A stretch of 40,524 bases of DNA from Nemertoderma westbladi (GCA_032718475.1 JAUCBJ010004152.1:1-40524); one strand, 5' to 3'; shown: positions 7,262-36,229, counted from the stretch's first letter. A program made the numbers and translations. The notes: generated from the letters alone by a model not told the origin.

Positions 7262-7270
7262 CTCCCCCCA
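7262..7270 (-). promoter_or_regulatory. Polypurine tract of element A
   Basis: Minus strand reads TGGGGGGAG immediately before the LTR start TGTTAGC. Confidence 0.8.
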
Positions 7271-9480: not shown

Positions 9481-9515
9481 CCTCCTCTATTATTTAATTA
9501 TTTTCTTATTTTTAA

Positions 9516-12500
9516 TTAAATAATTATTTTATATTTTGTGCGTGGGAAGGGCGTCTCGCCCTCATTCCCACCCCCCTCAGTCCAAAACTTTGGACGACTA
9601 AAAACTCTCACGTGCCCCTTCTTCCAGTAGGCACTCTCCTGCTGCCCTCCTATACGTCCTCTAACTCTTCGCCACACTCTCTTCGGTGCTACCTTTGCTG
9701 GCCTCCCCCTTCGTGTGTGCGCTGGCATTAGAGCCCTCGACGACCCCCGCTCGTCCCTCGGTATACGCGGTGTCTGCCCGTGCAATGCCCCCTCGCACTG
9801 TGTCCGTCCTGCGTGTGTATGCAACACGCCTCCTTCTACTTTCCCGACTCCCTTATGTTTGCTAATGGGCTTCTCTGCCCCTGGTTTAGTCCTTTCATAT
9901 CCTCTCCCTTTCCAACACTCTCCGGATCTGTGTCCTTTTACCACACATCGATGACATAGTCCGTTTGCGTCTGTGTAGGCTACACGATCTCGTTTGGGCA
10001 ACGCTTGCCAGTACTTGCAACTCCTGGTCTTATGGGTTCCGTCCCGATGTAATTGACATTGGAATCCTGGATTATAGCGTTTCCTGTATAGTCCTTCACG
10101 TATCGCGCTTAGGTTTATATGTACCGATTTAATGTTTCGATTGTCTAGACTCGGCCTACTGGGTATATTGGGATTGTGTTTATTTTTGGTGTTATTTTCT
10201 TCCTGTCCCTGCCACGGTGTGGCCCTACTACCAGCTAACTGTGGACTGGTAGTCCCCTGTATGGCCGCGTGTGGTGGTGACTGTCCGCACGACCTGCTCT
10301 CGTCCAGGGAGTTCGATATTCTTGCTCCTATCGGGGTATATTGTCGATATTGTGATGGGGGAATGTCACCCTGTCCCCCCCCCAGCCGGTATGTTTGGTA
10401 CTGGGGTTGATGTTAATACATTGGGGCCCATACGTCTATCTCCAATAACTCCCCCCTCCCCTGGATATATGTTATGTCCCTGTGTATTATAGTCATGCTG
10501 CTGTACCGATATAGGCCTACCTACCTCTCGCCTACCTACCGGTATGTACTCCGCGACTTCCGGGTTTAATCCCGTCGTTCGCGCTACCCCATCGCCTACT
10601 CTATCTCTCCCAGCATGGCCTATAATAGTATGTGCAGTAAGGCCTACAGTATGTCCTGCAGTCTGCATGTGCCCTTCCGAACCGAAGTTTATTCTTCGCG
10701 AATCTCGAATCTCCCCGCGACTACTGCACTCTCGATCGGCAGCTATATCCCGTCGGGAAGCTTCTCTCCGATCCCCTCTCCTGTTCTCGACTCTGTATTG
10801 GTACGTCTTGTACCCCTCTCTTGGCGTGCGGTGCGTTTCTCCGGGGCGACGGCAATCTCCCGAAGTTCGACCCCACTGGCTCCCTGACTCCATCTCTACT
10901 ATCGACGGTCCGTCATCCGTCCTCGCACTCCTATCGTTCGTGGCGACACCTTTTCTACTATCTCCTCTTCTTCTCTTTTCAGTGCAGTATTCCCGCTCGT
11001 GAGATCTCTCGTCGACCTCCCGGTTAAACTCCACTGTTCTTCTTCTCTCTTCTGATCGGGCTCGACGCTTCGTCTGCCCTCTCGCGACGTCAACCTGCCT
11101 CTCTCTACTCGATCGCACGCCGCTGGGGATACTCGCAATCCCCCTATTACTCTCCGTCGCCGGGTGTTGCGGTTTACCTGATTCGGCCCGCGCATTATCC
11201 GCTGACGGCTGTGGGACACTCTCTGCCCCCCCTCTCTCTCTACTAACTCTCTCGCGGTGGGGTGTCCGTAGCCCCCCCCCCACCCGCCACTTCTAACTTC
11301 ACTATCTCTTACTACACTTCTGCGTCCCTCTTGTGGGGCATTCTCTGCCCCCCCTCTCTCACCACTAATCTTATGTGGTGGGGCGCCGGCAGCCCCCCCC
11401 CCACTCGCCACATCTAACTTCACTATCTCTCACTTCGTCTCTACACCCCTCTCTAGTCGACGCACTGTCTCTACTACGGCTGGGTCTATTCACCCCCGCC
11501 TCTCTCTCTACTACTGCGTGGCCCACCAGGCCCACTTCGGGTTGGCTCAACCCCGCTACCTCCTGCCTACTAACTGCGTGGCCTACCAGGCCGCCGCCTG
11601 CCGGGCTATACACGTCTGACACGCTCATATTAATAGCACCATTCCCAATATTATTTGTTAAATCAATTAAATTATTATTTTCAAAATTTAAATTAATATT
11701 CGAATTATTTGAATTAATGTTATTATTTGAATTTAAATTTAAATTACTACTACCAGGTAAAATATTATTTGCTGCAATAAAGGGATTAGGGTTATCTACT
11801 ACGGTACTATTAATATTAACTATTTCTAACGTACTATTATTACCCCCCCCCCCCCCCCCCCCCGCCCGTACGGCTGGCTACACCAGTTCTGGTTCTCTCG
11901 CCCGGTGCCTGTAGGTGGGGTCTCACTCTCTGACAGTTCCAACCGCACCAGTTCTAGTCGGCGCTGATTCAGTTTGGCTTGATATTGCGCAAGCCTCCCT
12001 AGCACGGCATGCAAATCATCCCGCCTGCACTCACCCTCTATCCCCCACTCTCGCATATTCTGCCCGGCCAACTCTGCCTCTCTCGCAACCATCTCAAGCC
12101 GCCTCGCCGCCTCGCCGGCTCGCTCTCTACTCCCATCTCTCGCTCTCTACACTCCTTGGCTCTCTCTCTACACTCCTCGGCTTGCTCTCTATACTCCCTC
12201 TCCAACTCTCCTAACCTCTCTGAAAATGCGGTTTCCTCTCTCAATTGTCTCTCTAACTCATTCTGCTCTGTCGCAACCATTTCTAATTTATACGCCATGC
12301 GTTCACTCTCTCGCACCCGTCTTTCTTTTACGGAGGATGTAGCAGACTTATCGGTTGCGACGGACTCCCGCCGCCCCTCCGTCCTACTAACTTTCCCCCG
12401 CCTCCCGGAACTTCCTCCGACCGACGAGACCGAATCCTCGGAGTTAACCTCGGATTCGCCCTCCTCAGGTCTCTTCCAACCCACTAATTTTACTCCCCGG

Positions 12501-13132
12501 GCATCGACTAAGTATGGCCCTACGTACACTACGCTAGGTTCCATACCCCCACATTCCCATAGTTCAATCAGTTCGTTGACAACTCCCCTCGCCCTCTCCT
12601 CGGCTAGTTCTCCCTGCCCAGAACGCACTAGGTAATCAAAGTATCTGTTCGACTCACCTAGTCGTCTCCTCAGTCTCACCTCGTCTATCTTCGCCCCTCC
12701 TTTGGCCTCTCTCAGTTGCTCCCGGGTCGCGGCGTAGGCCCGTCGAAGTCGATCAGAAATCCCAACGTCCTCGTCGCCGACCTCTCCTCCATCTCTCTGG
12801 GTCCGACGTCGTACCGACGGCCCCACCGTCGCCGTTCCGGTGGACCGTTCGTCGTCCTCGGCCTGTGGCTGGCCGGCGACATCGGTGCGTCGACCCTCGC
12901 TCCGCGTCGACTCGTCTTCCTCTTCTCCTCCCGACTCGATTTCTCTTTGTAGACGACCCCCCACATCTTGGTTCGCCGGGTCGCTCGTTATCGACGTGGC
13001 GTCAACGTGCGTCGACGTGGTCGGCGTAGCATCGACCGGCGTCGTGGGTTCGTATCGTCTCGCCGTGGCCTCGCGGATCGTTAGATCGTCGTCCGGGGTC
13101 CGCGGCGGTGTCGTTCCTTTCTCTCGACTCAT
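9516..13132 (-). pseudogene. Gag-like polypeptide of element A (~1200 codons, broken by frameshifts at simple-sequence runs)
   Basis: Overlapping minus ORFs 12038-13132, 11826-12092, 11371-11628, 10366-11283 and 9516-10001 can be joined. Coiled-coil N-terminal part. C-terminal CQLH..THKTRSC..R..LCHRCVVKGHRSGEC resembles tandem BEL/Pao Gag knuckles. Confidence 0.7.
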
Positions 13133-13262
13133 CTTCGTCTTTGGTGTCTGGCAGCCACAGTCTGTCTGTTGGTTGGATCCAGTTCTATCACTGTCAGACT
13201 GTCAGGGCAGCTGCTAGGATTCTATCTCTGTCAGGGCAGCTGGGCGGATCTGATTCTATCAC

Positions 13263-13809
13263 TGTGACGGGATCTACGGATCCCGGTTTATCCGTTGGGT
13301 TTTCTATCTACGCGTCCCCGCCGTGTGTGAAAGGTAAAAGAGTTCTGATGTTCGGTTATATGTATAAGGTATAATATAGTTGATATATAGGCTATAGTAT
13401 AGTATGGCACAGTTACCGGTAGATAAGTATGATGGCGGTAGCGGACGGTGATAGAAGTCACCGTTCCACCCTACTGAACTAACTGAGTAAACTGAATGAA
13501 TGATTGCTGTACAGGTAATATGTACTGCACGGGTTTGGCCGTTACAGTACTTAGTCGATGCTGTCCCCCCATTGGCTAATATCCCTGTTGGCACCCTTTG
13601 CCCCCCTCTGAAGTGCTTCCCTTCGCCCTTGCTGTTCTCTCTTGGTTAGGGGTTTGGCCCCTGACCCTTATTGTGTGTGTTTCCTTTGGGGCCTATTGTC
13701 CCCGTTTACTGGGGTGACACGAGGTTGATTGGTAATCAACCTCGTGCTCCCAATATTGCTTTATGGCTCACTCTATGGGTTTGTGTTAGCGGAATTGGAT
13801 AAGCTAACA
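13263..13809 (-). repeat. 5' LTR of element A
   Basis: Direct repeat of 6716-7261. Confidence 0.95.
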
Positions 13810-14157
13810 CTGGCATAGCATTAGCATTCTTAATATATGTACAATAAATATATATATAATGCAGCTGACTTCAATGCAGCATGCCGTTAGTAAGTAGAAC
13901 TGCAGGGACAGGATACGATACGATACGAAGACTGATTTTCGTATTGCAGTATTTTATTCGTAACGAATTTCGTATCGTATCATAAAAATTGACGTCGTAT
14001 CGTATATTACGAATAAATATTTTTCGTATTTTATAGAATTATATTCCCTAAATGCCGTGGATTTTCAAAATTTTATTTTATTCGAATTAACTTTGTAAAG
14101 ATTGCTTTGAGTTCTCATTAGTATTTGTTCTATCATTTGTACGCCTATCGGTCAAGT

Positions 14158-14244
14158 GGTTCAGTAGCTCAGTCGGTAGAGCGTTGGAAATTATATGTGT
14201 AGTAGGTATTGAGTTCGAATCCTAGTAAGTGCGAATTATTTTTT
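14158..14244 (+). ncRNA. tRNA-like Pol III cassette in the 5' LTR
   Basis: A-box/D-arm TAGCTCAGTCGGTAGAGC, B-box GAGTTCGAATCC, followed by T6. Acceptor and anticodon stems do not pair. Confidence 0.6.
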
Positions 14245-14440
14245 GTGCAGAATTTCAACTCATTTAAATTGACCGCTACAAATTAATTGCATTTGTCTGT
14301 ACCAATGAGACTGTAGTTATTTGATTGTAACCAATGTCGTGCAAGTTATACATTAGCTGGACCAATAGCTATCTTTAAAACCTTGTTAGAACCTATAGAA
14401 CAATCGAGAATTTTCTCGATTGATTGCAGCACAAATTTGG

Positions 14441-14583
14441 TATATAAAGGTGCGATTTGTTCATTAGTTATCTCATTACTATACCATAATATATTCTCTC
14501 AGGTATTCAGTTATCTGATATTTGTTTATTCTGTCATTAGTTTTCAGATTACATTGTATTATAATTATATCTTCTGTAATAAA
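14441..14583 (+). promoter_or_regulatory. Putative LTR TATA box (14441-14448), Inr-like TCATT motifs and polyA signal AATAAA (14578-14583)
   Basis: Motifs occur in the U3-R order expected for an LTR. A 10-bp-stem palindrome at 14401-14422 lies just upstream. Confidence 0.5.
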
Positions 14584-16777
14584 GTCAGAATATTCTCTCA
14601 GCTTTTCTATCTGTTTTACTATGATTCACCACGGTGAACCCAGCTAAGGGACAGGATGGCCAGCTAGAGATCGGGCCGCAGCAATGAACGGGAACATCAC
14701 GGGAATGTAGACAAGAGACAACCCGCAATAACATCTTGAGTTATTCGCCCATCGCCTGAAAGGTTAGACAGCGTTCGACGCCTTGCTACCTAAGTATAAG
14801 ACCAAAAGATCAAAAGGTAGAAGTAGTGACACGCTGTGAGCCTAAAATTACATTTAGGGACTGTACTGTCTTGATTCAGGAAAAAACCACAGTAGACCTT
14901 CACATTCCTACGGGGGGGGAGAGCGCAGGCAGAGACACTAGTACGCAGATAGGACGTAGGCACACCGGTACGAAGCATACAAATTGGTAGGGTGCAGCAA
15001 ACTGTACGCCTAACTCTTGCTAAGTACAGGTGCGTGTGCGACTATTTGCAGTACAACGGTGTCCATTGCATTAGAACTTGTAGGCTAGGAGGGTTGTTGT
15101 GTTTTCACCTGAATTGAGATTGTACCGTTCAGGCGGTAGGGCAGTTTACAGCTAGGCGCAAATAAATTGAGGCTATTAGGGATACTAACATCTACCGTGT
15201 CCCCGCCAACGCCCTAATAGGAAGTTACCCAGACTACCTGGGTGACTAAAATTCTAGATAGGACGCCAGGATAGCTATTAGTAACAGTACGCCTACAGTA
15301 GTAAACTAACACATCTCTTCTTAGTATCAGGGACCTGGTACCTAAAATTGCCGAATTCTGGGCGTAGCATTAACCTTATGCCTGAATTTGAGTCCTGGAA
15401 ATACGCAAGAGGGGAAGGAACCTTATCATTCGTGAGTATTGGACCTACAAGTTATAAAATTAGAATATTCGTAAAATGCACACCGTACCCAGTAATTATA
15501 TATGTGAAGGAGCAAAACTGCTTTTGACTGTTTAGAATTGACACACGCGCGTTAGAAATTATTTACACCTCAAAATATATAAAATTAACTTTCGTCCGTA
15601 CTGTGTTTTGCCCGCTAGTTAGACATCTCCAAATCTCTGCCTCTGTACTTAGCTAGCGTCTCTTTGCCCAACCATATAAATCACACCGCGGCAAAGTGTA
15701 CGAGCTTCTTAGTCCGTCAGTGAGTCAGCCTGATTTTAGGATTCGCTGCGCGGGATTTTTGTTTCATCGAAGTTTGTCTGCTCGTAGACTGTTTTCTGCC
15801 TCACCGGTTATAAGAGATCGATACTGCAATATATTCGCTTACTTAGAGTTTACTGTTTTGGTGAGAAGGTCGGATTTATGATTTGATTTACAAACTTTAC
15901 TGTAAGATATTGCAGGTATTGTTACCGTCTCTTCCATATAGTAGGAATAGGCGTATCTCTTCCAATAGTAGGAATGTGTTTTACTGAACTACGGTTCGGT
16001 AGGACTAAAGTTATTTGAAAATTTTGTATTTTGAGGTAAAAATTTGTATTTGATTAGCTAAGTGCTAATTTTTTGAAATAAAATTTGATTTGAACCGCGT
16101 GTAAAATATTTTTGGAATTGAATACCGGTGTTTAAAAAGGGTTTAAATGCCATATTGTACCGGTACAAAATTTTCGTAAAGTAAAACCTAACTCTTTTGT
16201 TTTTTCAGGATTCAGAACTCATTTCTAGACTGTAACGGGAGCAAGACCGTGTTTAGCAAGTTTGGGAGATAGATAACTCAACAACTTTGGTTGGGAAAAT
16301 CGCGCTTCGTCCGCAACGTTAAAAACGGAAAGGTTCACGTCCGGTTTGTATCTGGGAATCTGTTTTTCTGGAGAATTATTGGAGTGGGTGAGTTCGAAAA
16401 GTTGCATAAATAAGTTAGGCATTACCGTATTAGTTAAAATTATTGTGGGTTCCACTGTCTCAAGTATTTATGCATTCCGTATGATTTCTTTGTTCATTGC
16501 TGAATTAGTCCGTATTATTGTATTTAATTTACATTTTGATAACGCATATCGTTATCCGATTTATTTGTTATAAAATTGGCCGCTAGGCTAATTTTATTAT
16601 ATACTTATTCCGTGACATTTATTTGCTGTAAAATTGGCCGTTTAGGCTAATTTTATCCATCTGCTATAAAATCGGCCGGTAGGCTAATTTTATATGACTG
16701 TAATTAGTACCGTTTAGATATAAATACGGTAAACTCGATACTTTGACACTCACTTTACTTGACTTACAACTACCGAA

Positions 16778-19700
16778 ATGAGTGACAAACAAGACTATAC
16801 GAAGAACACACCTACCGACTATGACTCGTGTGACGCGGATAAGTCAGCAGCGGAAGAACAACAGGGGAAGACTCGCGAGCCTACCGAACCTACACCGTGT
16901 GCGTCACCAGTACATCCAACGGGAGTACCGGATGCCGTAGTACGAGGCGACGGCAGGACCGAGGACTTTCTAACTGTTCCGCAACCTAGATACAGGGAAA
17001 TGGAGATGGTAAGTTCAGTAGGAAGCCAGGAGAGCGTAGTTAGAAGCGTCGGCGGTTACATGGCGCATATTACCAGGAGTATTGGAGAAGGCCAACGCAT
17101 ATTAGACGAGTTAACCGCTCCGATGTCTCGGTTCGAGTTCTACACTCTACAGGTGAGAGTACAGAGTAAAGTATATAAGTCCGTAGATAACCTAATTGGT
17201 CTACAAGATCTAGCTAGACAGAGACAGGATATGGACACTCAGCTTAGAATCCTCGAGAAACTAATGATCACTAGAGAGAAACTGATTCAGTTTAAGTCGA
17301 CGATTAGGCAGATACAACAGGAACAAGCGGACCAGTTGTTAGGTGAGTCGGTTTCGGACGAATTATTGCAACCCGAGGAAGAACAGGAACTGTACAGGCT
17401 AGATGGACAATTGAAACACCTGACGGATCACTTACGCATGTGCGGCGAGGACGTCGGAGATTGGGAAACCGTGCCGGAGGCTACGAGGGAAACTTCACTC
17501 GCACAAATCGAACTGGCACCGGGAACACTAAATCAATCACTGGTGAGTATTCGCAGCGAAATTGGCGAGGTGAGTATGGCTACGTCAGAAATTGCTCGAC
17601 AACAGCAGCTCTACAGACAACAACAGGAGATGGAGGAACAAACTGAACTGCTAATGGCACAAGCAGCAGTACAAGAAGAGAAACTACGTGTTGCGAATGT
17701 TGCAAGAATCTCTCATCTGCAAGAACAAGCCGAGTTGGAAGCAGCCGAGATGGAAAGATTAGAGTTGGACATTGCACAACAGGCAGCGGCAGCGGCAGCG
17801 GCAGCGTCCGAGTTAGAGCGAAAAAGGTTAGCTTCAGAAGCGAGAACCGAAATGAAAAAACGGCAAATAAAGGCTCAATCAGCTATACGACAAGCGGAGT
17901 TCGAGGCGCAACAACAACAGACGGAACAACGCGAGAAGGAAGTTAAACTTCATTTCGAACTCGGGAAGAAGGCGAGAGAATTAGCCAACGCGAAGGAAGA
18001 TCTGGATCTACAAGCCCGCGATCGATCGATGAGATCTCGTGACGGACATGATTTGGACCAGTTAAAGGTAAGGCACCGTCAAATTCAGGAACGGAAGAAG
18101 GAAGGAAGCGTAGGAGCACCCGGACGGGAACGACAATTAGTAAAGGACTTGTGTCAACGATTCCCACAGGTAACTCCTATGTTTGCACCAGTTACGATTA
18201 AGGAACCTATTTCGATTGCTGGTAGTAGTAATATTTCTCCTATCCATGGTGCGACGGAACACAGGTTTGTTATTCCGGACAAGTTTACACCGCCAAGAGC
18301 AACGTCGTCGCCTATTCCGAAAGTCAAGGTAAGTAACCCGCCGATTACAGATCGTAGTAGTTTGTTGACCAGACCTGCACTACTGACGACTAAACAGGTG
18401 AGTCCACCTTCGACACCAAAACTCGTTACGCACTACACGTACCCAATGACGTTTAGGCCTACAAAGCCTTTGGATTCAAACGCTGTAGTCCGACCACCGG
18501 TTCAGTTTACATCGCAATCTACGACTTCGAGGAAGACTTGTGAGCCTACCGAACAACGGAGACCAGTGGATACGCGACCGTTCAACCAGTTTACATCGCA
18601 ATCTACGACTTCGAGGAAGACTTGTGAGCCTACCGAACAACGGAGACCAGTGGATACGCGACCGTTCAACCAGTTTACATCGCAATCTACGACTTCGAGG
18701 AAGACTTGTGAGCCTACCGAACAACGGAGACCAGTGGATACGCGACCGTTCAACCAGTTTACATCGCAATCTACGACTTCGAGGAAGACTTGTGAGCCTA
18801 CCGAACAACGGAGAACAGTGGATACGCGACCGGTTCAGTTTACATCGCAATCTACGACTTCGAGGAAGACTTGTGAGCCTACCGAACAACGGAGAACAGT
18901 GGATACGCGACCGTTCAACCAGTTTACATCGCAATCTACGACTTCGAGGAAGACTTGTGAGCCTACCGAACAACGGAGACCAGTGGATACGCGACCGTTC
19001 AACCAATTTACATCGCAATCTACGACTTCGAGGAAGACTTGTGAGCCTACCGAACAACGGAGATCAGTGGACGATGTTCCGAAACGAAACGTGAGAATTC
19101 GTACGACGCAACGGACGCGAGCACGTCGACCACCATATCCAGATGATAGTAGTACTTCGAGCGAATCGGATTACCCGAAACGCGAGGTATTTAGAACAGG
19201 GGCGGCCGATGAATATAAACGCGAGCGTTCAGACAACTCCTTTGTAGACAATCCTCCACAGAATACACCAACACAGAAGGCGTTACAACCAACAGACGCA
19301 ATCAGTACACAACAGTTCGCCGACATTCTGCGACCAGTTGTTAACAAGTTGGCTCAGATCGAGGAACGTCTGGAGGAAGGTTACACCGACAGTTCGAGAA
19401 ATTCCGAATTCGAACACAATAGACACCCGAAGGAACCACAAAGACCGGTACCTTCAAAACATACATCGTATCAGGGAAAAGCGCCAAGAAGGGAGAACAT
19501 CAACCAGGTTACCAACCAAGGACGCGAAACTCTGAACGTTGCCGAGGAGATAGCGAAATTCGCAGCCAGACAAGGATTGCCGGTGCAACAACCACCGAAG
19601 TTTTCCGGTAGCTCAAAACACTGGCACACATTCGTAGACTATATCGAATCCCAGATCGCCGTGTGCGCCTTTACATCACTGGAGAAGTTTAATTACCTGC

Positions 19701-22700
19701 TTCAAACGTTGTCAGGAGAACCTAAACGTTTGGCGGAGACCTTCGTTGGTGTACCGGACGCTTTCGAACTAGCGTACGATCGTTTGACCTCGATCTACGG
19801 AGGCACAGTCAGTATGGCCAGGTCAGTAATAGAGGAACTCTGTAAGGGAGGGGCTATCACTAAACCCGTCGACTTATTAAAACTGGCCGACGAGATAAAG
19901 AACGCTATCACTACTTTAAGATCCATTGGACAACTCGACTACGGGAATACCCCTACAGTCCTATTAAAGATCATAGGACGACTCCACCATCGACTTCGTC
20001 GGGAGTGGAGAAAGATCGAATACCAGCGGGAAGAGCGGGGTGGATTCTTAAAACTAGAGGATGTGTACCTTTTGATATCCAGGGAAGCAGTTGTAGAAAC
20101 ACGATCCAACTACACTGACCAGCACATCGTAGCAGAAGGGATCACCTTGCCATCCTCCAACCGACAAAAACCCCAGACAACATCCACCAAGACGGCCACT
20201 TACGCCACATCGACGGAAACCCGACAATTCTCGGACGGAAGTAGGGTATCTGCGCCCATTGGGACAAAACAGACGAGACAACAACTTAGTACCGACTTCA
20301 GCGGCTGCCAATACTGCGAGCATTTAGGCAAGCGGTATATCGGTCACAAGTTGCGAAGTTGTCGACAGTTTCGCGAGTTGAACTCGGAAGAACGACGGCT
20401 GCAAATACGGCCATTGGACTCTTGTTGGCGGTGTACGCGACACGGACACGTCCGTAAAGATTGCCCAAATACCGACACTTGTCCATCCTGTGGACGCAAC
20501 CACGACGGTCTGCTCCACACAGACAGCCACACGCCGACAAAACGCTTCGCCAGGGAACACCCGGAAGCAGCAGCGAGATGTGATGCGGCCTACAGAAAAC
20601 GAGAATCGAAAACGACTCCAACCTTCGTGACCCATATTGAGGATTGCTTCTCAGAACAATCCGGATCGTCGGACGAAGAATCAGAAGACGACGACGTATA
20701 TTCGGATGGAGATGAACAGCCATCGATCGCGCTTCTGACTACTGACCAACTAAAGGGATTTAGTGTAATTCCGATTAAGGTTACTGGCACAAAGGGGAGT
20801 AAGAGAATCTACGCGATTCTAGATTCAGCCTCATCTCACAGTTACGTGGATGAAAAGATAGCTGACGTCGTGACGGATCTCAGACAAGGTAAGCGCGTCA
20901 GTTATACCGTAAGTAGTATGCACGGACAGCGTGCAATACCAGTGACACGAGTCAAGTTGAACTTAGACTCTCTTCTTCCGAAATCGCAACACAGCGAGAG
21001 GGAGAGGTCTTTGTTACCCTTTAAAGATCTAACCTTTGCGGCCACGAAGGACTTTAGTAACCTACTAGGTCCAGTGCCGGAACAATCTCTAGAGGACCGT
21101 AAGTATTTCAGACACCTTGGTGTACCCGAATGTCCTGTCAATTATAGATCGGTAGCCATGCTGATCGGGACAGACCAATTCAACCTACATCAGGTGTGGG
21201 AAACCAGACCATCGGCAGTTGTAGCGGGAAACGCATACGCCTGCAGAACGCCGATAGGGTGGTATACTCGAGCGCCTGTGCGCACACTAGACGTAAGTGA
21301 CGAGGAAGACGATGTACAAAGTACATGTAGTTTATTAACTACAAATTCAATTCATTCCTTCTCACACGACGTGAACCATACTACACTACAGTCGACAAAA
21401 CGTGACAGATGTGTGACTAGTATGATAAGTCACAAGGAGCAGCTAATTCACCAGGTGCAGAAATCGATACAACATTGGCCTCCGTTATACGACAACAAGT
21501 CTAACACCATCCCTAAGGACGCGGAAATCAAGAAACCAAAAAAGGGGAAGGCAAAGAAAAAGACAACGGCGGCAAAACTCAAGAAAAAACCGAAGGCGAA
21601 ATGGAAAGATATAACTTCAAAGGTCAAGAGAGGAAGACTTGCGAGCCTTTCTACACCAGACATATCGCCAGACGGTCAACCAGACACGTTACTAGACGGT
21701 CAATCAGACATTCTACCAGACATTAGTAACGCATTGACAAACAGTAAAGCCGCAGTTTCTCTGTTGGAGCGGCCTTCTATTGACAAACAACCAGATACGT
21801 TACCAGACGTATCGCCAGACACATTACTAGACAGTCGACTAGACACTAGTAACGTACTGACAAATAGTGAAGCCGCAGTTTCCCTATTGGAGCGGCCTTG
21901 TATTGACAAACTACCAATTTTGACACACTTGAGCAACCATAAGCACGGTGAAACCTCATGTATTACAGATGTGGGTAGTACCTACGCTAATGTAAATACA
22001 GGTGTTACTCTGCGCTCAAGAGACATACCGAACTTGCAACCTACGGTGAGACCTGGGATTAATGTCGGCAGAAAAATAAGTTTACCGAAACCTGCTGACC
22101 CCATAGAGTTCAAACCACCATTAACGATCGACTTACAAAGTACCGACAATCAAGGTAAGAAGACGAAGAAGGACAAATTACTTGTAGACCCGGACGGATC
22201 AACAGTCAACAAGGGAATACTTACCGGCGGACCCGTGGGCCCTTCTAGTAAATCAAAACCTTCCAAAATCTCCATTGACTTACCTGATGACGTCACAAAT
22301 ACTCACGTCGACCGGATTGTAAACTTAACAGACTCTTGGTCAAACGCTTGCCGAAAGTTAGCGTGGATTGTACGTTTTGTACAATACGTTAAAGGCAAAC
22401 GTGACTTTACACGTCGACTTACATTGGCTGAGATTGACAGGTGTGAAATTAAATTAATTCGCCATTACCAACTGCGATATTTCGCACGCGAATTCACATC
22501 TATAAATCAAGGCCTACCAATCAAGTCGTCACCGATACTGAGTTGGAGTCCGATTATTTATAATGGCTTAATTTGTCATAAATCTCGGCTTCAAAACATT
22601 GACTTTAACACAAACTTTAGATACCCAATAATAATACCGCAACACCACGAACTACAACGTGCAATGATACTGGACGCACATTTACATCTGAAACACGCTG

Positions 22701-23815
22701 GAAGACACCACTGTCTTTCCTACTTACGTACAAGATTTGTATTGATTAGACCCAGTAAAGCGTTAAGTTCAGTGACACGTACGTGTATTATTTGTAAAAA
22801 GGTACATTCTAGAATAGGTACCCAAGAAATGAGTGAATTACCACAAGCACGACTTCAAGCATTCAGACCACCTTTTACAGAGACTGGAATTGATTGCTTT
22901 GGTCCCATACATACGAAACGTGGACGTATACTAGTAAAACGCTGGGGACTGATTTTCACATGTATGTCCAGTAGGGCAGTTCACATTGAACGTGTGATGG
23001 ATCTTTCCACCAACGCGTTTATACTAGCACTGCGGCGATTTATCGCTAGACGCGGACTAGTAAAATGCTTGTACTCAGACCAAGGGACAAACTTTGTTGG
23101 TGCTCGGAATGAGATTGCTAGAGCCTTTAAGAAATTAGATCATGATCAAATCTCGAACGAACTACAACCTCACAAGATTGTTTGGAAGTTTAATCCTCCA
23201 GATAGTCCATGGAGAGGCGGAGTCTGGGAGAGATTGATTAGATCTATAAAGACGGCAATGGCAAAAGTCATTCCAGTAAACCACATATTGACAGACGACC
23301 AACTGACAACATTGTTTGTTGAAATCGAGGCAATACTAAATACTAGACCAATAGTATTAGTACCCGATGACAAACAATCTCAATTTGCTTTAACACCGGC
23401 ACACCTGCTAATGCAGGCACCGACCACTTTGACGCCGATTTCTATTCCAATAGAAAGCGATAGCTACGGTAGAAAAGCGTGGAAAATCACGCAACTACTG
23501 GCTAACAAATTCTGGGAAATATGGCAAAACCATTATTTGCCCTCTATTTCTGCCAGAACAAACTGGTACAATAACACCCGCGCATTAAAGCCGGGAGATC
23601 ACGTGCTGTTAGCAGAAGTGAATCTAAAAAGACGCTTCTGGATAACAGGTGTAATTTTAGCCACACATCCATCTATGGATGGAGTGACAAGAACTGTGAC
23701 GGTACGGACAATTGACGGTCGTACAGTAGACAGACCGACTCAACGTCTCGTACTTCTTGAAGAGACTCGTAACGAGTCTGGAGACTACAAATCTCCAACT
23801 AATATTAGTAAATAA
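16778..23815 (+). CDS. BEL/Pao Gag-protease-integrase polyprotein (2345 aa) with no RT/RNase H
   Basis: Gag capsid-like PKFSG..W..F..EKFNYLLQTLSGEP, three Cys/His knuckles, aspartic protease AILDSAS, integrase HHCC (H..HAG..CIIC), DDE core (IDCFGP, SDQGTNF, WERLI) and BEL-type C-terminus (FWEIWQNHYL..W.TGVI..HPSMDGVTRTV). Confidence 0.93.
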   Translation: MSDKQDYTKNTPTDYDSCDADKSAAEEQQGKTREPTEPTPCASPVHPTGVPDAVVRGDGRTEDFLTVPQPRYREMEMVSSVGSQESVVRSVGGYMAHITRSIGEGQRILDELTAPMSRFEFYTLQVRVQSKVYKSVDNLIGLQDLARQRQDMDTQLRILEKLMITREKLIQFKSTIRQIQQEQADQLLGESVSDELLQPEEEQELYRLDGQLKHLTDHLRMCGEDVGDWETVPEATRETSLAQIELAPGTLNQSLVSIRSEIGEVSMATSEIARQQQLYRQQQEMEEQTELLMAQAAVQEEKLRVANVARISHLQEQAELEAAEMERLELDIAQQAAAAAAAASELERKRLASEARTEMKKRQIKAQSAIRQAEFEAQQQQTEQREKEVKLHFELGKKARELANAKEDLDLQARDRSMRSRDGHDLDQLKVRHRQIQERKKEGSVGAPGRERQLVKDLCQRFPQVTPMFAPVTIKEPISIAGSSNISPIHGATEHRFVIPDKFTPPRATSSPIPKVKVSNPPITDRSSLLTRPALLTTKQVSPPSTPKLVTHYTYPMTFRPTKPLDSNAVVRPPVQFTSQSTTSRKTCEPTEQRRPVDTRPFNQFTSQSTTSRKTCEPTEQRRPVDTRPFNQFTSQSTTSRKTCEPTEQRRPVDTRPFNQFTSQSTTSRKTCEPTEQRRTVDTRPVQFTSQSTTSRKTCEPTEQRRTVDTRPFNQFTSQSTTSRKTCEPTEQRRPVDTRPFNQFTSQSTTSRKTCEPTEQRRSVDDVPKRNVRIRTTQRTRARRPPYPDDSSTSSESDYPKREVFRTGAADEYKRERSDNSFVDNPPQNTPTQKALQPTDAISTQQFADILRPVVNKLAQIEERLEEGYTDSSRNSEFEHNRHPKEPQRPVPSKHTSYQGKAPRRENINQVTNQGRETLNVAEEIAKFAARQGLPVQQPPKFSGSSKHWHTFVDYIESQIAVCAFTSLEKFNYLLQTLSGEPKRLAETFVGVPDAFELAYDRLTSIYGGTVSMARSVIEELCKGGAITKPVDLLKLADEIKNAITTLRSIGQLDYGNTPTVLLKIIGRLHHRLRREWRKIEYQREERGGFLKLEDVYLLISREAVVETRSNYTDQHIVAEGITLPSSNRQKPQTTSTKTATYATSTETRQFSDGSRVSAPIGTKQTRQQLSTDFSGCQYCEHLGKRYIGHKLRSCRQFRELNSEERRLQIRPLDSCWRCTRHGHVRKDCPNTDTCPSCGRNHDGLLHTDSHTPTKRFAREHPEAAARCDAAYRKRESKTTPTFVTHIEDCFSEQSGSSDEESEDDDVYSDGDEQPSIALLTTDQLKGFSVIPIKVTGTKGSKRIYAILDSASSHSYVDEKIADVVTDLRQGKRVSYTVSSMHGQRAIPVTRVKLNLDSLLPKSQHSERERSLLPFKDLTFAATKDFSNLLGPVPEQSLEDRKYFRHLGVPECPVNYRSVAMLIGTDQFNLHQVWETRPSAVVAGNAYACRTPIGWYTRAPVRTLDVSDEEDDVQSTCSLLTTNSIHSFSHDVNHTTLQSTKRDRCVTSMISHKEQLIHQVQKSIQHWPPLYDNKSNTIPKDAEIKKPKKGKAKKKTTAAKLKKKPKAKWKDITSKVKRGRLASLSTPDISPDGQPDTLLDGQSDILPDISNALTNSKAAVSLLERPSIDKQPDTLPDVSPDTLLDSRLDTSNVLTNSEAAVSLLERPCIDKLPILTHLSNHKHGETSCITDVGSTYANVNTGVTLRSRDIPNLQPTVRPGINVGRKISLPKPADPIEFKPPLTIDLQSTDNQGKKTKKDKLLVDPDGSTVNKGILTGGPVGPSSKSKPSKISIDLPDDVTNTHVDRIVNLTDSWSNACRKLAWIVRFVQYVKGKRDFTRRLTLAEIDRCEIKLIRHYQLRYFAREFTSINQGLPIKSSPILSWSPIIYNGLICHKSRLQNIDFNTNFRYPIIIPQHHELQRAMILDAHLHLKHAGRHHCLSYLRTRFVLIRPSKALSSVTRTCIICKKVHSRIGTQEMSELPQARLQAFRPPFTETGIDCFGPIHTKRGRILVKRWGLIFTCMSSRAVHIERVMDLSTNAFILALRRFIARRGLVKCLYSDQGTNFVGARNEIARAFKKLDHDQISNELQPHKIVWKFNPPDSPWRGGVWERLIRSIKTAMAKVIPVNHILTDDQLTTLFVEIEAILNTRPIVLVPDDKQSQFALTPAHLLMQAPTTLTPISIPIESDSYGRKAWKITQLLANKFWEIWQNHYLPSISARTNWYNNTRALKPGDHVLLAEVNLKRRFWITGVILATHPSMDGVTRTVTVRTIDGRTVDRPTQRLVLLEETRNESGDYKSPTNISK
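18503..19071 (+). repeat. 84-bp (28-aa) in-frame tandem repeat x7 in gag
   Basis: QFTSQSTTSRKTCEPTEQRRPVDTRPFN repeated. One unit is 81 bp. Confidence 0.97.
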
Positions 23816-24477
23816 TTAGGAGTTTACAAATAGATTTCCACGTACCTGTACACTGTAGTAAGGACAGCGGTAGAATTCCATTGTCTTTATATGTGAACAT
23901 TGAGGGTCCCTTATGTGTCACATAGGAGCGGGATTTGTAGGTATAAGAAATGGAATTCTACTTGGAACTCACAATATTGAGACATTTTCGAAATTTTAGA
24001 CAATCCATTTGGATTTGAAAATTTTTAAAATTTTCTCCAGTAAATAGATTTCAGGGTACAGTCGGGTGGAACTTAAAATTAGAGAAACAAGAGAGGAAGA
24101 CTTGCGAGCCTTTCTTAAAATTGTAATTAAATTTTACACGGTCTTGTTTCAATAAGTTACGTCAATAAATAGACTCCCCTATATTTATTACTAATTCTTG
24201 ACTGCTTATTTTCTGATAATAGTTTGGGATCAAAAAGTGAGTATTTTAGACTCACAGCCAGTTTAGCCCAAATTCGTTTTTTATTTCGGCAAAAAAAAAA
24301 TTTTAGATAAGAAGCAGCGTGTCATTAAAGAAACCTTAGATCTTAGGCTATGGGTAGGAGGTTAGAGCGTTGTCGAAGCCCAAAAGGCAGACGAAACTCT
24401 CACGTCTCCTCACAACTAACTACAAACTCTGTTGTATTCCCTCTAGTAGTAATGATTATGTAACTACACCTCTAATT

Positions 24478-26183
24478 ATGGAGAAAGGGATACAAGGAGA
24501 GCCGAGATGGGGATATGATATCCAAGAGGAAGCGGCAGCTTCATTCGAACGATTTGGAGCAAAAGACTACACTATATTTGGTATAAAGGAATTATCAGAA
24601 AGTACAGCGAAGCTCGCAAAGACAGCAATGCCTTTACTCGAGCAGGATTTAGCATATTTCGAGACGTGTATCTTCGCTGTGCGGGATCTCTTATCGAAAG
24701 ACCATCTATGTTTACATTGTTACCCTATGAAGGAGAACGTATCGTGGAGATTATGGATGAATCACGGCAGACGCGCGCGCCTATCGGTCACCTTGGTGAT
24801 GATTTCGAAGTAACTACTACGATCACTGACGATCCTTTAGAAGAACTTCTTGAGATAGAAAGGAACCTCCCGAAGAAATCTCAGACGGAGATTCGACAAC
24901 TTGAAGCAACAGATGCTATAGTTTGCATACAACCTTCAGAAACCTACCAACCCATAGATCCAGATGATTACGATTATAGTGTGGGAGGAAGCGCTCGACC
25001 GATTGGAGATCTTATATACGAACGAGTGTGGTACCCTGCCAATACGATGTGTAGTAAATGTGGCGTCGCTGGACATCATATGACAAAGTGCAGTGGAAAG
25101 CACATTACTACGACTCAGCTAATCTGTGGATGGTGTGGGGATCAAGGGTCTCATACCTTTTATACTTGCTGGAGATTTATGGCTCAATGTACTTACTGCA
25201 ATATAAAGGGCATCGAGCATCTGAATGCCAACTAAAAGACATACCCTATGAACACGAATCTGTAAAACTCGTGAGAAAATTATTTGATGAGTGGGAAGAT
25301 TTAGCCGACGAACATGTATCGGCACAAAGAAGACGGTTTCCGATGAGGGCGCATCTTGGATTTTGGGCGGTAAATCCCCAGACGATGATGTCGGAAGGAT
25401 ATATCTCCGCTATGCCCCAATATGACGAACTTATTGAGGTTGTCGATATTTTACCCCACGACAGTGGATTCCGAGTAGTGCGCGAGTATCTATTACAAAT
25501 TCACCCGGATAACAAAAACACGTGGAATTTTCAGAAAGTCGTTAATCGCATTACGTATGTATGGTGAATTCGATCGTTTCCGAACTGAAAAGCGGAACAA
25601 AGGAGCTTGGTTAACCGTCGCATGGGCGTACCGAGCCGCGTTTTACCACAAACGTATACGAGCGAGCGTATTCAAGGAAGAGGAGGTCCTAGAGGCGACA
25701 AATATACCAGCCACTCCGGTTGCGCCGTCTGCACGTCACCCTCGGGAGGACGGACAGGGTAGGATCATACGGGTCCAGAAAGTGGGCCAACAATTAAAGA
25801 AAATTATTAATATAGAAGAACGCAAGGGAGCTGAGCCGACCATTCGAGTTACTCGGGATACGGTATCGCTTCCTAGAGAACCAACAGGAGGATCGGGACA
25901 CACCCCAGCTGATGAGAAGGGGGCACAAGCTACTCTTGGGTCTGCGTCGTCCGCTTCTCGCGCGTTCCCAGACGTTCTACCAACTGTAGTGACAACTGAT
26001 CGGTCACGAGGAGTCGGTCGAGGTTTTGGGATGCCAAATAGACGAATTTGCGAGGAAATAGTCGCACCGTCTCTCAACGTCCAAACGAAACCAGTGACTC
26101 GCCCCATTAGTCCCATATCGCGAGCAAAGTCACCTGTGCGCAGTTTTCGAGGACGCGGCAGGGCTCGATCCACTAAGCGATAA
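24478..26183 (+). pseudogene. Accessory ORF2 of element B: triple CCHC zinc-knuckle protein, three frame breaks
   Basis: Overlapping ORFs 24370-24813, 24666-25235, 25058-25567 and 25557-26183. Knuckles CSKCGVAGHHMTKC and CGWCGDQGSHTFYTC, plus CTYCNIKG/HRASEC completed across the frameshift at ~25210. RG-rich basic tail. Confidence 0.75.
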
Positions 26184-26771
26184 AAGGGAGGGCAAGGGTG
26201 GACGGAAGACTCGTGAGCCTTTCTTATGATTTTGTGATTTATTTGAATTTATATTTATATTTGTGTTTATTCCGAACTTATGCAATTTATATTGTTCCGA
26301 ATACTATGCAATTTATATCTTATAAGTAGTATTTGTATTTACAGTGAAATAGAAATTTTCATTTATTTGTATTTGTAATTGTTTGAATTTATGCAATATT
26401 GAAATGCAATAGATTTATATTGGTGAATTTAATTTAGATTTATATTGTACTTACTTAGTAAAGCCTTAAATACGTAAAGTTTGAATTTGTAATTAATTTT
26501 GTATCGAATCATTACGTAGAAAGGAAGTATTGTTTGAAACTTAATTGTAAATATGTAAGTACGCCCTAAGTATTCTATAGTTTGATTGATTATTGGTGAA
26601 AACCGTATATTTTATGCACGATAATATCCTGTTTTCATGGAGCGGTATAGAATTATATTCCCTAAATGCCGTGGATTTTCAAAATTTTATTTTATTCGAA
26701 TTAACTTTGTAAAGATTGCTTTGAGTTCTCATTAGTATTTGTTCTATCATTTGTACGCCTATCGGTCAAGT

Positions 26772-26858
26772 GGTTCAGTAGCTCAGTCGGTAGAGCGTTG
26801 GAAATTATATGTGTAGTAGGTATTGAGTTCGAATCCTAGTAAGTGCGAATTATTTTTT
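26772..26858 (+). ncRNA. tRNA-like Pol III cassette in the 3' LTR
   Basis: Same sequence as 14158-14244. Confidence 0.6.
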
Positions 26859-26941
26859 GTGCAGAATTTCAACTCATTTAAATTGACCGCTACAAATTAA
26901 TTGCATTTGTCTGTACCAATGAGACTGTAGTTATTTGATTG

Positions 26942-27138
26942 AACGCCGACACAAGGGTGGGACAGTAGAGTCAGGAACTCATACCGGTATCATAAACAAT
27001 TTCAAAATCAGTTTGGTTATTTTATATTATTTAATTCCCTTGTATGGTTTAAATTTCCCGCCTTTTGCTCATTTGATAATATAAATTTACTATAGTTTTT
27101 GGTCCTACTGTAAAAAAAAAAAAAAAAAAAAAAAAAAC
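26942..27138 (+). mobile_element. Short polyA-tailed retroposed insertion in the 3' LTR
   Basis: Absent from the 5' LTR. Ends in ~26 A. Flanked by an 11-bp TSD TTATTTGATTG (26931-26941 / 27139-27149). Confidence 0.92.
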
Positions 27139-30037
27139 TTATTTGATTGTAACCAATGTCGTGCAAGTTATACATTAGCTGGACCAATAGCTATCTTTAA
27201 AACCTTGTTAGAACCTATAGAACAATCGAGAATTTTCTCGATTGATTGCAGCACAAATTTGGTATATAAAGGTGCGATTTGTTCATTAGTTATCTCATTA
27301 CTATACCATAATATATTCTCTCAGGTATTCAGTTATCTGATATTTGTTTATTCTGTCATTAGTTTTCAGATTACATTGTATTATAATTATATCTTCTGTA
27401 ATAAAGTCAGAATATTCTCTCAGCTTTTCTATCTGTTTTACTATGATTCACCACGGTGAACCCAGCTAAGGGACAGGATGGCCAGCTAGAGATCGGGCCG
27501 CAGCAATGAACGGGAACATCACGGGAATGTAGACAAGAGACAACCCGCAATAACATCTTGAGTTATTCGCCCATCGCCTGAAAGGTTAGACAGCGTTCGA
27601 CGCCTTGCTACCTAAGTATAAGACCAAAAGATCAAAAGGTAGAAGTAGTGACACGCTGTGAGCCTAAAATTACATCTTATGGACTGTACTGTCTTGATTC
27701 AGGAAAAAACCACAGTAGACCTTCACATTCCTACGGGGGGGGAGAGCGCAGGCAGAGACACTAGTACGCAGATAGGACGTAGGCACACCGGTACGAAGCA
27801 TACAAATTGGTAGGGTGCAGCAAACTGTACGCCTAACTCTTGCTAAGTACAGGTGCGTGTGCGACTATTTGCAGTACAACGGTGTCCATTGCATTAGAAC
27901 TTGTAGGCTAGGAGGGTTGTTGTGTTTTCACCTGAATTGAGATTGTACCGTTCAGGCGGTAGGGCAGTTTACAGCTAGGCGCAAATAAATTGAGGCTATT
28001 AGGGATACTAACATCTACCGTGTCCCCGCCAACGCCCTAATAGGAAGTTACCCAGACTACCTGGGTGACTAAAATTCTAGATAGGACGCCAGGATAGCTA
28101 TTAGTAACAGTACGCCTACAGTAGTAAACTAACACATCTCTTCTTAGTATCAGGGACCTGGTACCTAAAATTGCCGAATTCTGGGCGTAGCATTAACCTT
28201 ATGCCTGAATTTGAGTCCTGGAAATACGCAAGAGGGGAAGGAACCTTATCATTCGTGAGTATTGGACCTACAAGTTATAAAATTAGAATATTCGTAAAAT
28301 GCACACCGTACCTAGTAGTTATATATGTGAAGGAGCAAAACTGCTTTTGACTGTTTAGAATTGACACACGCGCGTTAGAAATTATTTACACCTCAAAATA
28401 TATAAAATTAACTTTCGTCCGTACTGTGTTTTGCCCGCTAGTTAGACATCTCCAAATCTCTGCCTCTGTACTTAGCTAGCGTCTCTTTGCCCAACCATAT
28501 AAATCACACCGCGGCAAAGTGTACGAGCTTCTTAGTCCGTCAGTGAGTCAGCCTGATTTTAGGATTCGCTGCGCGGGATTTTTGTTTCATCGAAGTTTGT
28601 CTGCTCGTAGACTGTTTTCTGCCTCACCGGTTATAAGAGATCGATACTGCAATATATTCGCTTACTTAGAGTTTACTGTTTTGGTGAGAAGGTCGGATTT
28701 ATGATTTGATTTACAAACTTTACTGTAAGATATTGCAGGTATTGTTACCGTCTCTTCCATATAGTAGGAATAGGCGTATCTCTTCCAATATATTTCGTAT
28801 GTTATTATTTTGTGTGAATATTAATGTTTTTAACAGTCAAACCAGAGATCTCATCACTTATTTGTTTACATATTTTTTTCTCAAAATTGGTGTATAAATT
28901 AGGTTACAGCTTACAGTTTTACTATGCCAATAAAATGTGTAAGACAGGAGGATTGTTAACACATTTTAATTAACTGTTTTAGAATAATGATAAAAAGACC
29001 ACTGAAATATAATCTAATATCAGTTATAATAAATTAATTAAATTAACTAATCGCGCCTACAAGGCCTTTGATGATATGATAAGGCATTATAGTGGGATAA
29101 TAAAATAAATAAAACATTATAGCTTTATTCTAGCATTAGTTTAACTTCGAAATTGAAGTTTCGAATTTTATTTCATAGGCCCCCCTACATCAAATTCAAA
29201 ATTTTCCGTAATGGCATATGGCATGGTATTATGGTAACGCCTATTATTGGGCCGCGTTGCATAACGTCCTTATGGATGTTGTAGACAGTGGAGAATTGAT
29301 ACAATATTGCCCGCTGTAGTAGCAAGCCAGGGACTGGTAGCAAGCATACTGGTCTGGAACATTTAAATAAAATACTTGCCAATTATATCGATAATTTATA
29401 TGATTTTCTAAGTGTAATAACACAAAAAATGCAATACATGTTTTTTACCAACTCTTAGACAAAATACGATGCGAAAAAATCTATCTTTAGGTATCCTATC
29501 TTTGATTTTTCGTATCGTATCGTATTTTCACAAAATTGCATTCGTATCGTATCGAATCATTAAAAATTGGTTCGTATCGTATCGTATTTCCGTATCGTAT
29601 CGTATCGTATCCTGTCCCTGAGTAGACGTAGTAATATCAAAAGATATTGTAATGTTATGACCGAGACTGACACAAAGTTACTTCAGGAAATAAACTATCT
29701 TTTTGGAGTTTTTATTGCCCTGGCAAATAAAGAAAACAACGAGCGTTTTATATCAATTAATTTCTGCGTCTAGGCCTCTGCCAGACATCCGCCTCGGACC
29801 GAGGAATTGTGGAGCAATTGGGCGATATCAGGGTCAGAGGTGCCTAGCCTATTTATTACGGAATAAGTAAATAAAACACAGATAAATTATAAGACTTCCA
29901 CCATGAACAATTAGTAAAAATTATTTTTTTATATGCTTTTTTGATAACCATAATAATTTACTAAAATAATTTTATGAAATAATATCTATATAACATAAAA
30001 ACCTACCACCAAACCAGAAAAAGTTAACAATTCAGCA

Positions 30038-31578
30038 TTATGGCTTTCGACCATTGAAATCAATCCACATTTCGGAACCTTGAGCCTTGAAGAAGTTGTA
30101 GCTGGGTCCACCACCGGGTGCCCAGAATATCCCCCATTTCGGAAATTGATCGAATTCCGCACTGTATTTCAAACCATTAAGATTACTGTTGTAGGTGTAC
30201 TTATACCACCATCCACCGCTACCGTAGTAATCAACCAGATGTCCAGACCATTCGTCGCGATCATGGTCCGTAGTGCTGAAACTAATCCCATTTAAAGGTT
30301 TCAAGGCATCATGAGCTGGGTATATGATGGGGCTGTTTGGATTTTTCACACCTTTGTAGGAAGTCGGTGTACTGTAGGTGCCGACATGAAGTCTATAATC
30401 GGATCCGGTGACTGTGAAAGTGGAATAGGATGCGCAGTAGTAATATCCATTATAGTTGATCCTAATACCCAACTCAACCGATCCAAAATCATTGGTTAGC
30501 ATCTTTATGTTGTCTAAGCCCAACCAATAACTTCCCCCAGGATTACCGAATCCTTTAACGTATTCATCCCATCTTCGGTCGAAGCTCAATCTATCGGATG
30601 TCAATTGCATCTGTATCGCTACAACATTCCCTTTGCATCTGACCAACTGCTGCCCCAGAGTATTGAGCCGTGCACATATTCCCTTCAGCTTAGGGCATTT
30701 GCTACTCGTATGTTTCTCGCAAACTTGTTCGGAACGTCGAACAAGGTTTTTAGTTGCAGATGCCATGGTTGTATTGGATGCCTGCAATAAAATTACTTTT
30801 ATCAAATTAAAAATATTTGTACCTTTAGAGAAGCCGTTATTATTATTATTGCTCACACAGTCGACACTAATACATATGCCTTTAAAACAATTAATTATTT
30901 AACATCTAATGTGTTGAATATAAATTGTAAGCCTACACTGTGGTTATGGGATTTATTACTACTGTAATAGGCACTATTAAATTGTTTGCAGATAACTGCA
31001 TGTTTATGGGACAAGACATGCAGTCCTCGAGCATTGTCATTCTGTTCATATTGGGCAAATGGTGCACGTGCATGTCCGTCCATCCGTCTGTTTGGTAAAG
31101 TTTAAACTAATGATAATTTATTTTCAATAGATTTTTCCAGTCATAGCTCAAACTCAAATTTCCATTTTGATGCCTTTAGAGATCATGTTCGGTGGTTAGC
31201 TGCTATTCGGTTATAGACTAACGTATTCATAGTTCAACGTGAAACTAACATTGGAGGGAATTCAAAAGTTGTTACACAGCTAGAAGCTTCCTCCAAATTA
31301 GGTATTGAAAAGTAACAAGACCGAATTCGCTGAACACATAACTTTCCTTGCCGAATTCTCAAGTACATTGGTCTTGCGAAAATCGCCAAAGACAAGTTGT
31401 GTCAAGGTTTGTATTCTATTTTTATTGTTTGGATTCCCATGGTTATCTCCAAGATATAACTATAACTAACCTTGTCTTTCCTTTCAACCATTCTCGGTGA
31501 ATCACCGCTGCTCTCTCCAAGGCACCCAGCGGCTAAAAGAGCCACAAAAGCTAAAAGTGAAATAGCCGTCTTTAACAT
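30038..31578 (-). CDS. Secreted fibrinogen-related domain (FReD) protein; exons 31578-31471 and 30781-30038 (~283 aa)
   Basis: Exon 1 encodes a signal peptide (MLKTAISLLAFVALLAAGCLG). Phase-0 GT-AG intron. FReD motifs FDRRWDEYVKGFG, YWLGLDNI, FSTTDHDRD and GGWWY..SNLNG. The exon-1 linkage is inferred. Confidence 0.85.
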
Positions 31579-33522: not shown

Positions 33523-33556
33523 CTTAAAGTGAAAATAAATTCGATTTTGTAGTAAA

Positions 33557-36051: not shown

Positions 36052-36211
36052 TTAATAACGAGTGCCCTACATAACGGCGCAGTGCACTTAATAACGAGTG
36101 TACTTCATAACGGTGCAGTGCACTTTATAACGGCGCAGTGCACTTCATAAAGGTGTAGTGCACTTCATAAAAGTGGTAGTAGTGCACTTCATAACCATTG
36201 CAGTGCACTTA
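36052..36211. repeat. ~20-bp minisatellite (ATAACGGCGCAGTGCACTTC-like)
   Basis: About 8 degenerate copies. Confidence 0.85.
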
Positions 36212-36229
36212 ATGTTATATGCTGTATTT

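Follow-up and report, generated by a model that had tools for sequence, protein, structure and literature searches.

BEL/Pao retrotransposons (Belpaoviridae) retain conserved terminal repeats (PMC3601003), and Sinbad, a member of this group, has the termini TGT...TCA (PMC554778). Ends other than TG...CA are described for the Arabidopsis Copia element AtRE1, which has TA...TA (10.1101/137141), and for TARE1 (TA...CA), AcCOPIA1 (TG...TA), Tos17 and elements with TGTT/AACA (10.1101/137141, PMC5659011). Among animals they are described for Zam-type errantiviruses, with AGT...TAAYT and other AG...TT/CT-type ends (PMC3601003), and for Troyka, with CG...CG ends and a 3-bp target-site duplication (TSD) (PMC12440569). 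Here we analyze a 40,524-nt stretch of DNA from Nemertoderma westbladi (GCA_032718475.1 JAUCBJ010004152.1:1-40524; hereafter the window), which contains a 14.8-kb BEL/Pao element whose long terminal repeats (LTRs) read TAT...ATA inside a perfect TATTT duplication. A preliminary description of this locus had placed rare non-canonical ends mostly in plant Copia elements, which overstates their restriction in view of the published animal cases Zam and Troyka. In open-access text we found neither a BEL element with TA ends nor a self-primed BEL element, and Repbase, subscription journals and supplements (e.g. those of PMC3118150) may list some; PMC3118150, PMC13524379 and PMC6934838 gave nothing further on BEL ends.

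The features that define the ends of the element are as follows.

14027 to 14031, no strand: left copy of the 5-bp TSD, TATTT
14032 to 15967, plus strand: 5' LTR of 1936 nt with TAT...ATA ends; other copies terminate at the identical bases
15922 to 15948 (start approximate), plus strand: upstream duplicate of the LTR end and of the primer-binding site's initial 8 bases
26639 to 26645, plus strand: short purine-rich tract adjoining the 3' LTR; identical junction in the public sequencing run X5
26646 to 28790, plus strand: 3' LTR of 2145 nt with TAT...ATA ends, carrying a 208-nt insertion
28791 to 28795, no strand: right copy of the 5-bp TSD, TATTT

Both LTRs open with TATAGAA and close with TTCCAATA, and none of the four junctions allows the repeat to be extended, the inner neighbors being the purine tract and the G at 15968 and the outer neighbors the TATTT duplication, so that the boundary is as unambiguous as had first been described. 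From local composition, the chance of finding TATTT at the right flank is 0.0045. On the strands joined by integrase the sequence is ...ATA-3' at both ends, as against ...ACA-3' in relatives; the terminal A is retained and the preceding C is replaced by T. Across 1936 aligned bases the two LTRs show 3 substitutions, besides one 1-nt indel and the 208-nt insertion, and the copy is therefore young. A shorter LTR ending in CCA, which would give a CA end, was rejected, as it leaves three shared bases unexplained and has neither a TG start nor a TSD. The insertion (26931-27138) is confined to the 3' LTR, is poly(A)-tailed and is accompanied by a 10-11-nt duplication; no second copy of it was found elsewhere in the window. 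The tandem unit at 15922-15978, of about 27 nt and composed of the LTR end and the start of the primer site, is present in two copies here and in three in contigs of runs X1 and X2.

The ends of other copies were judged from contigs of public sequencing runs (X1 to X5) rather than from raw reads, over 13860-17400 and 15880-16030; contigs lose rare variants. Five runs from four studies contain 0.24-0.65 of the sequence words of 14032-23800, and contigs matched on 13860-17400 numbered 6312 in X1, 2607 in X3, 260 in X4 and 12 in X5, counts that are not copy numbers; the family is abundant and varied. Among the matches listed, which leave out 385 loose-end rows, two X4 contigs switch to foreign DNA exactly before 14032, and one X5 contig passes exactly before 14032 into an identical purine tract. 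At the other end, one contig each from X2 and X4 exits exactly after 15967, whereas one from X1 exits after 15940, the upstream duplicate end, likewise finishing in ATA; both repeats of the primer site's 8-nt core (15940 and 15967) thus have copies ending next to them. Six further records (two from X4, three from X2 and one from X1) are variant ends finishing in TA, inferred from loose letters. The T>C change at 15966 that would restore a CA end is absent from the complete five-row variant table at a threshold of 1 in 100, and a small CA minority could escape the contigs; the variant table of the 5' region lists 40 of 210 rows. No empty insertion site occurred among the contigs compared. An exact search of metagenome contigs with the LTR start gave 0 matches, and 41 pattern matches in viral contigs gave 0 confirmed. 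Run X5, labelled as another organism, contains the element at low depth, with mostly 95-99% identity in 25 of 30 bins. With contigs switching to foreign DNA at identical positions and no CA end listed, the preliminary view that the change is symmetric and predates insertion is borne out by identical TA...TA in both LTRs and at the ends of other copies. The TA ends are almost certainly genuine and common to copies of the family.

To place these ends among BEL elements, we used 79 BEL loci from metagenome contigs, in which pattern-based calls made the start of the 3' LTR readable in 57 and unreadable in 22. All but one of the readable starts are TG (56 of 57), and the remaining one, in locus L068, is TAT. 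In loci where both U5 ends could be aligned, six end in ACA and one, L013, in ATA. TA...TA is exceptional among these relatives by their sequences, and single-end changes may be recurrent. L013 (LTRs at 566-911 and 7075-7401) has a TG start and a TA end in both LTRs; the two agree at only 74% and are not flanked by a matching TSD. In L068 the 3' LTR, at about 5510, apparently starts with TAT, and the locus has an intact 1828-codon BEL frame. A TAT start called by pattern in L072 was discarded, because its LTR pair shows TG.

The internal region is occupied largely by a single long frame, in which three features bear on the enzymes available to the element.

16763 to 23815, plus strand: single frame of 2350 codons (first ATG at 16778)
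21260 to 22350, plus strand: open linker of about 364 codons at the position of reverse transcriptase (RT) plus RNase H in relatives
22646 to 23758, plus strand: integrase, with HHCC finger, D2044, D2106, E2156 and a DUF5641 C-terminal domain

The frame comprises, in order, a long N-terminal region, 84-bp tandem repeats (18412-19155), a BEL Gag (DUF1759, zinc knuckles), protease, the linker and integrase. DUF1759 was matched with an E of 2.5e-11 and DUF5641 with 1.7e-20, and profiles built from relatives gave E values of 7e-66 for Gag-protease and 3e-166 for integrase. These BEL-type domains follow the Gag-PR-(RT-RH)-IN order (PR, protease; RH, RNase H; IN, integrase), and the element has the direct LTRs, purine tract and 5-bp TSD of BEL/Pao, though not its TG...CA termini. 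It lacks the RT and RNase H of an autonomous member, RT phylogeny being the formal criterion for the group, and from Gag, protease and integrase sequences alone it is filed as a non-autonomous BEL/Pao derivative. A tblastn search with the RT/RNase H part (about 700 residues) of 120 relatives, the RT motif being present in 113, gave no match in any frame, and an RT/RNase H profile from 60 segments reached a best E of 3.1 across the window. The linker in its place has 0 in-frame stops, compared with a mean of 20 and a minimum of 7 in 5000 shuffles, and contains an internal duplication of its own. Five of the six Gag variants among the rows listed are silent, too few to weigh. The earlier statement that RT is lost and integrase kept therefore stands, the catalytic residues D, D and E being intact, and RT and RNase H are likely borrowed from another BEL element.

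The predicted integrase structure (mean predicted local distance difference test score 65.5) matches the enzyme of the prototype foamy virus (PFV) intasome with an E of 2.9e-13. The protein retains 97 of 120 conserved columns, including the catalytic triad and the residues matching PFV Gly218 and Arg222, which have base-specific roles. It departs at the other 23, along its whole length, whereas relatives depart at a median of 5 and a maximum of 26. The nearest integrases, in records of fish, echinoderm, mollusc and other animals, are 34-44% identical, and none closer was found in our comparison. Trees were made by FastTree with L070 left out as too short, and hold none of the named BEL/Pao references Suzu, Sinbad, Pao, Tas and Sailor. 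It is rather likely that this integrase itself performs the joining.

The sequence following the 5' LTR gave a second departure from expectation, which the preliminary description had missed along with the absence of a tRNA site. The features concerned are listed below.

15968 to 15987, plus strand: primer-binding position adjoining the LTR, not of the TGG/tRNA type and complementary to the element's own LTR
14889 to 14911, plus strand: predicted self-primer, in which 14901-14911 is the exact complement of 15968-15978 and 14889-14896 can add 7 pairs
14763 to 16208, plus strand: candidate GT..AG intron, the splicing of which would delete the primer segment together with U5 and the primer-binding site, proposed from splice-site context and a joint seen in X4 only, in one contig with 23 letters on the short side

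The 5' LTR is followed by G-T rather than TGG, and no 18-nt tRNA-type site was found, host tRNAs not having been compared. An exact 11-mer self-match starting at the first base after the LTR was reached in 3 of 3000 shuffles, and this complementarity of about 11 nt is that of Tf1-type elements. The duplex extends to 18 pairs at -23.5 kcal/mol (1 of 200 shuffles), against -14.0 for the next-best site. We applied the same analysis to 11 relatives with a defined 5'-LTR end, L007 being left out of the splice-junction test. Contiguous 11-nt self-pairing, the form seen in the window element, was found in L063 and L013, and in six others (L030, L031, L033, L064, L072 and L079) self-pairing of 10-12 nt spans a GT..AG junction inside the LTR with consensus-like sites, at 0-1 of 200 shuffles each. 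Self-pairing thus occurs in 8 of 11 relatives, several of them close kin, so that fewer than eight independent cases are represented; the remainder are L049 and L007, with a TGG tRNA-type site and no self-match, and L076, whose LTR is incomplete. For the window element a splice-junction primer was rejected (8 nt, 53 of 200 shuffles). When ACA positions of 21 loci were scanned without anchoring for matches of at least 9 nt, the result (5/386 vs 144/19413) was weak and is not used. Taken together, these complementarities suggest that the element is quite probably primed from its own RNA. As self-priming occurs with TG...CA ends in relatives, it is not what causes the TA ends, but flush ends are predicted by it.

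In run X4, labelled DNA by guess, the joint between 14763 and 16208 is splicing-like. Separately, one X4 contig has 86 differences across 15182-15796, those listed being mostly A>G, which resembles A-to-I editing.

We wondered whether other explanations might account for these features. That the TA ends are an artefact of assembly or of boundary placement, the real ends being TG...CA, is exceedingly improbable, since all four junctions agree, contigs of independent runs break at identical bases and no TG lies near the left end. The preliminary description had proposed that a co-adapted integrase explains why integrase is kept; in the strict form of this proposal, the enzyme would have switched to TA ends on which helper integrases fail, and the RT-less family would retain it for that reason. 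The loop at PFV 214-218 acts as a wedge at the DNA end and stacks against the terminal adenine (PMC6784120). Across this loop the integrase profile aligns to PFV without gaps, and positions 214-216 read Pro-Trp-Arg, whereas position 215 is His in 110 of 120 relatives; Trp is found in 1 of the 120 nearest proteins and so is Arg, and Pro-Trp in 2 of 120 further proteins. The rarity of these residues at 215-216 favors co-adaptation, as do an intact integrase within an old-looking RT-less frame and the combination of a Pro-Tyr loop with a TAT start (single LTR) in L068. The window also contains a neighboring TG...CA BEL-like element without integrase, so that a CA-type integrase has worked in trans in this genome, while the present family kept its own, and a similar argument is made in a study of Rosaceae Copia TG...TT elements (PMC5659011). 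In contrast, the Pro-Trp of L055 and the Arg of L017 both accompany LTRs that start with TG, L013 ends in TA with an ordinary Ser-His loop, the 23 divergent columns are spread over the whole protein, and the contacts that PFV integrase makes with bases at the cut end are said to be mostly of the van der Waals type (PMC6784120). Comparison of the loop with TG relatives therefore lends the proposal no support, and integrase sequences as a whole neither establish nor exclude it; we consider strict co-adaptation unlikely. Since Gag and protease are retained too, the retention of integrase needs no special cause. For the CA-to-TA change, the best reading is a fixed transition tolerated in a highly divergent integrase lineage, not a proven switch in specificity. 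It is somewhat unlikely that RT loss is limited to this copy or a small subfamily and that an autonomous TA-ended parent supplies everything, in which case neither the retained integrase nor the ends would need special explanation. The diversity and abundance of the family (6312 X1 contigs on 3.5 kb), the incomplete share of its words in the runs and a contig comparison reaching to 17400, short of the protease-integrase region, are compatible with such a parent, whereas 364 open codons with an internal duplication and no trace of RT are hard to derive from one recent deletion.

With regard to priming, a host RNA (a tRNA fragment or other small RNA) might serve instead, the 11-nt self-match being due to chance. 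The ICTV, the international body for virus taxonomy, gives tRNA-Arg/Gly priming for Belpaoviridae (PMC8742986), and half-tRNA priming is known in Copia (PMC10886601). Two of the following observations, the shortened match and the absent duplex, also favor a host primer, and all of them weigh against our account. G15976A is the majority allele in the compared runs, at 64-69% of summed depth, and A15976 cuts the perfect helix to 8 pairs, a length reached in 103 of 3000 shuffles, unless 14903 co-varies; no co-varying change at 14903 is among the 40 of 210 variant rows listed. The global fold of 14860-16010 does not contain the duplex, as local hairpins occupy the primer site and also the bases of the 7-pair extension. 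A transcript start some 430 nt upstream of the primer, in contrast to Tf1, is suggested by the TATA match at 14441 together with the X4 joint, and none of the five runs found was an RNA run containing the element. Moreover, X1 and X3 share a rearranged junction, at a depth of about 30, with A-A instead of T-A before the primer site, and the integrase lies on a long branch (1.26) with an unsure position in the trees. A chance match is nevertheless hard to reconcile with a P of about 0.001 at the exact position, or with self-pairing, in different letters, in 8 of the 9 relatives lacking a TGG site, and we regard host-RNA priming as quite improbable.

On balance we favor the view that this is a recent copy of a multi-copy BEL/Pao family with TA ends on both joining strands and a Gag/protease/integrase frame without RT and RNase H, which likely borrows these activities, primes itself and uses its own integrase. 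The unspliced transcript would fold such that 14901-14911 pairs with 15968-15978, borrowed RNase H would cut after 14911, and borrowed RT would extend from there, as in Tf1. Because the primer site and the purine tract adjoin the LTRs without spacer, the cDNA would be completed with flush ...TA ends that require hardly any trimming or none. Integrase would then keep the terminal A, which bears the attacking 3'-OH, and tolerate T for C next to it, giving the usual 5-bp duplication. More speculatively, and in our estimation improbably, the family may be a stable, abundant BEL/Pao lineage parasitizing only the RT and RNase H of TG...CA helpers, with its own capsid, protease, RNA primer and TA-reading integrase, its DNA insulated from helper integrase and tRNA supply and splicing of the 1.4-kb intron separating mRNA from self-priming genome.

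Further features of the element are given below.

14165 to 14244, plus strand: tRNA-like A box (14165-14176) and B box (14211-14222) followed by a T run, in U3, noted by eye
14441 to 14448, plus strand: TATA-box match, motif match only
14578 and 15161, plus strand: AATAAA, motif matches only
24358 to 26183, plus strand: extra coding region between integrase and the 3' LTR, with four overlapping frames of 151-238 codons and a weak zinc knuckle

The U3 boxes and T run are reminiscent of Helenus-type polymerase III promoters; ARAGORN found 0 tRNA genes in the LTR, and Rfam gave no tRNA match and nothing significant. The insertion site is a hairpin-rich repeated host element (13906-14026), pieces of which recur near 29500-29620. 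The neighboring element, a second young LTR element on the minus strand at 6716-13809, has 547-nt TG...CA LTRs, a CTGGC duplication and BEL-like Gag knuckles (E 1.3e-8), and no protease, RT or integrase was found in it. In this element too, the primer position and the LTR pair with each other, over 9 exact nt (5 of 3000 shuffles; duplex -27 kcal/mol). Elsewhere the window contains a THAP-domain frame (881-1564), a fibrinogen C-terminal domain gene (30038-30898), a ClpX-like fragment (33047-33523), for which a search returned bacterial matches only, and 12-nt and 43-nt tandem arrays (36200-40500).

Many copies naturally carry TA for CA at both reactive ends of the integrase substrate, and this provides a direct test of the importance of the conserved C to a retrotransposon integrase. 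Pipelines that require TG...CA, an RT match or LTRs below about 1.2 kb would overlook this abundant family. The self-pairing primer site, common to most relatives examined, contradicts the ICTV description of Belpaoviridae as tRNA-primed (PMC8742986).

Compared with known systems, the element shares with BEL/Pao (PMC8742986; Sinbad, PMC554778) a single frame in the order Gag (DUF1759, knuckles), protease, integrase (DUF5641), together with direct LTRs, purine tract and 5-bp TSD. It differs in having TA...TA for TG...CA, no RT or RNase H and no tRNA site, and in its size, with LTRs of 1.9 kb against 0.2-1.2 kb and a length of 14.8 kb against 4.2-10 kb in the Belpaoviridae profile (PMC8742986). 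The TA...TA ends themselves are already known from plant Copia; here they are real, family-wide and in a new superfamily context. The plant elements without TG...CA cited at the outset likewise show a normal TSD beside fixed ends other than CA, AtRE1 having identical dinucleotides, yet they are mostly short-LTR Copia, whereas the present element is an animal BEL/Pao whose LTRs are very long and whose copy number is high. Zam and Troyka are likewise entire animal lineages with non-TG...CA ends, in other superfamilies and with other end letters. According to PMC10045372, IS3EU/GingerRoot share integrase-related DDE enzymes and TA...TA ends but are DNA transposons with 6-bp TSDs and neither LTRs nor HHCC finger, whereas our element has LTRs, Gag, an HHCC finger and a 5-bp TSD. 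Quinta also codes for proteins without RT, and differs in lacking integrase and sharing its ends with its helper (PMC11302176). Helenus terminal-repeat retrotransposons in miniature share a tRNA-like LTR segment, yet are non-coding and tRNA-primed (PMC10886601). For priming the closest parallel is Tf1/sushi, in which 11 nt directly after the 5' LTR are likewise complementary to the element's own LTR and a tRNA site is absent (PMC7175516, PMC6317226). Those elements are autonomous Ty3/Gypsy members primed by the first 11 nt of their RNA, whereas the window element has BEL domains in place of Ty3/Gypsy chromovirus proteins, an apparently internal primer, and RT and RNase H that must come in trans.

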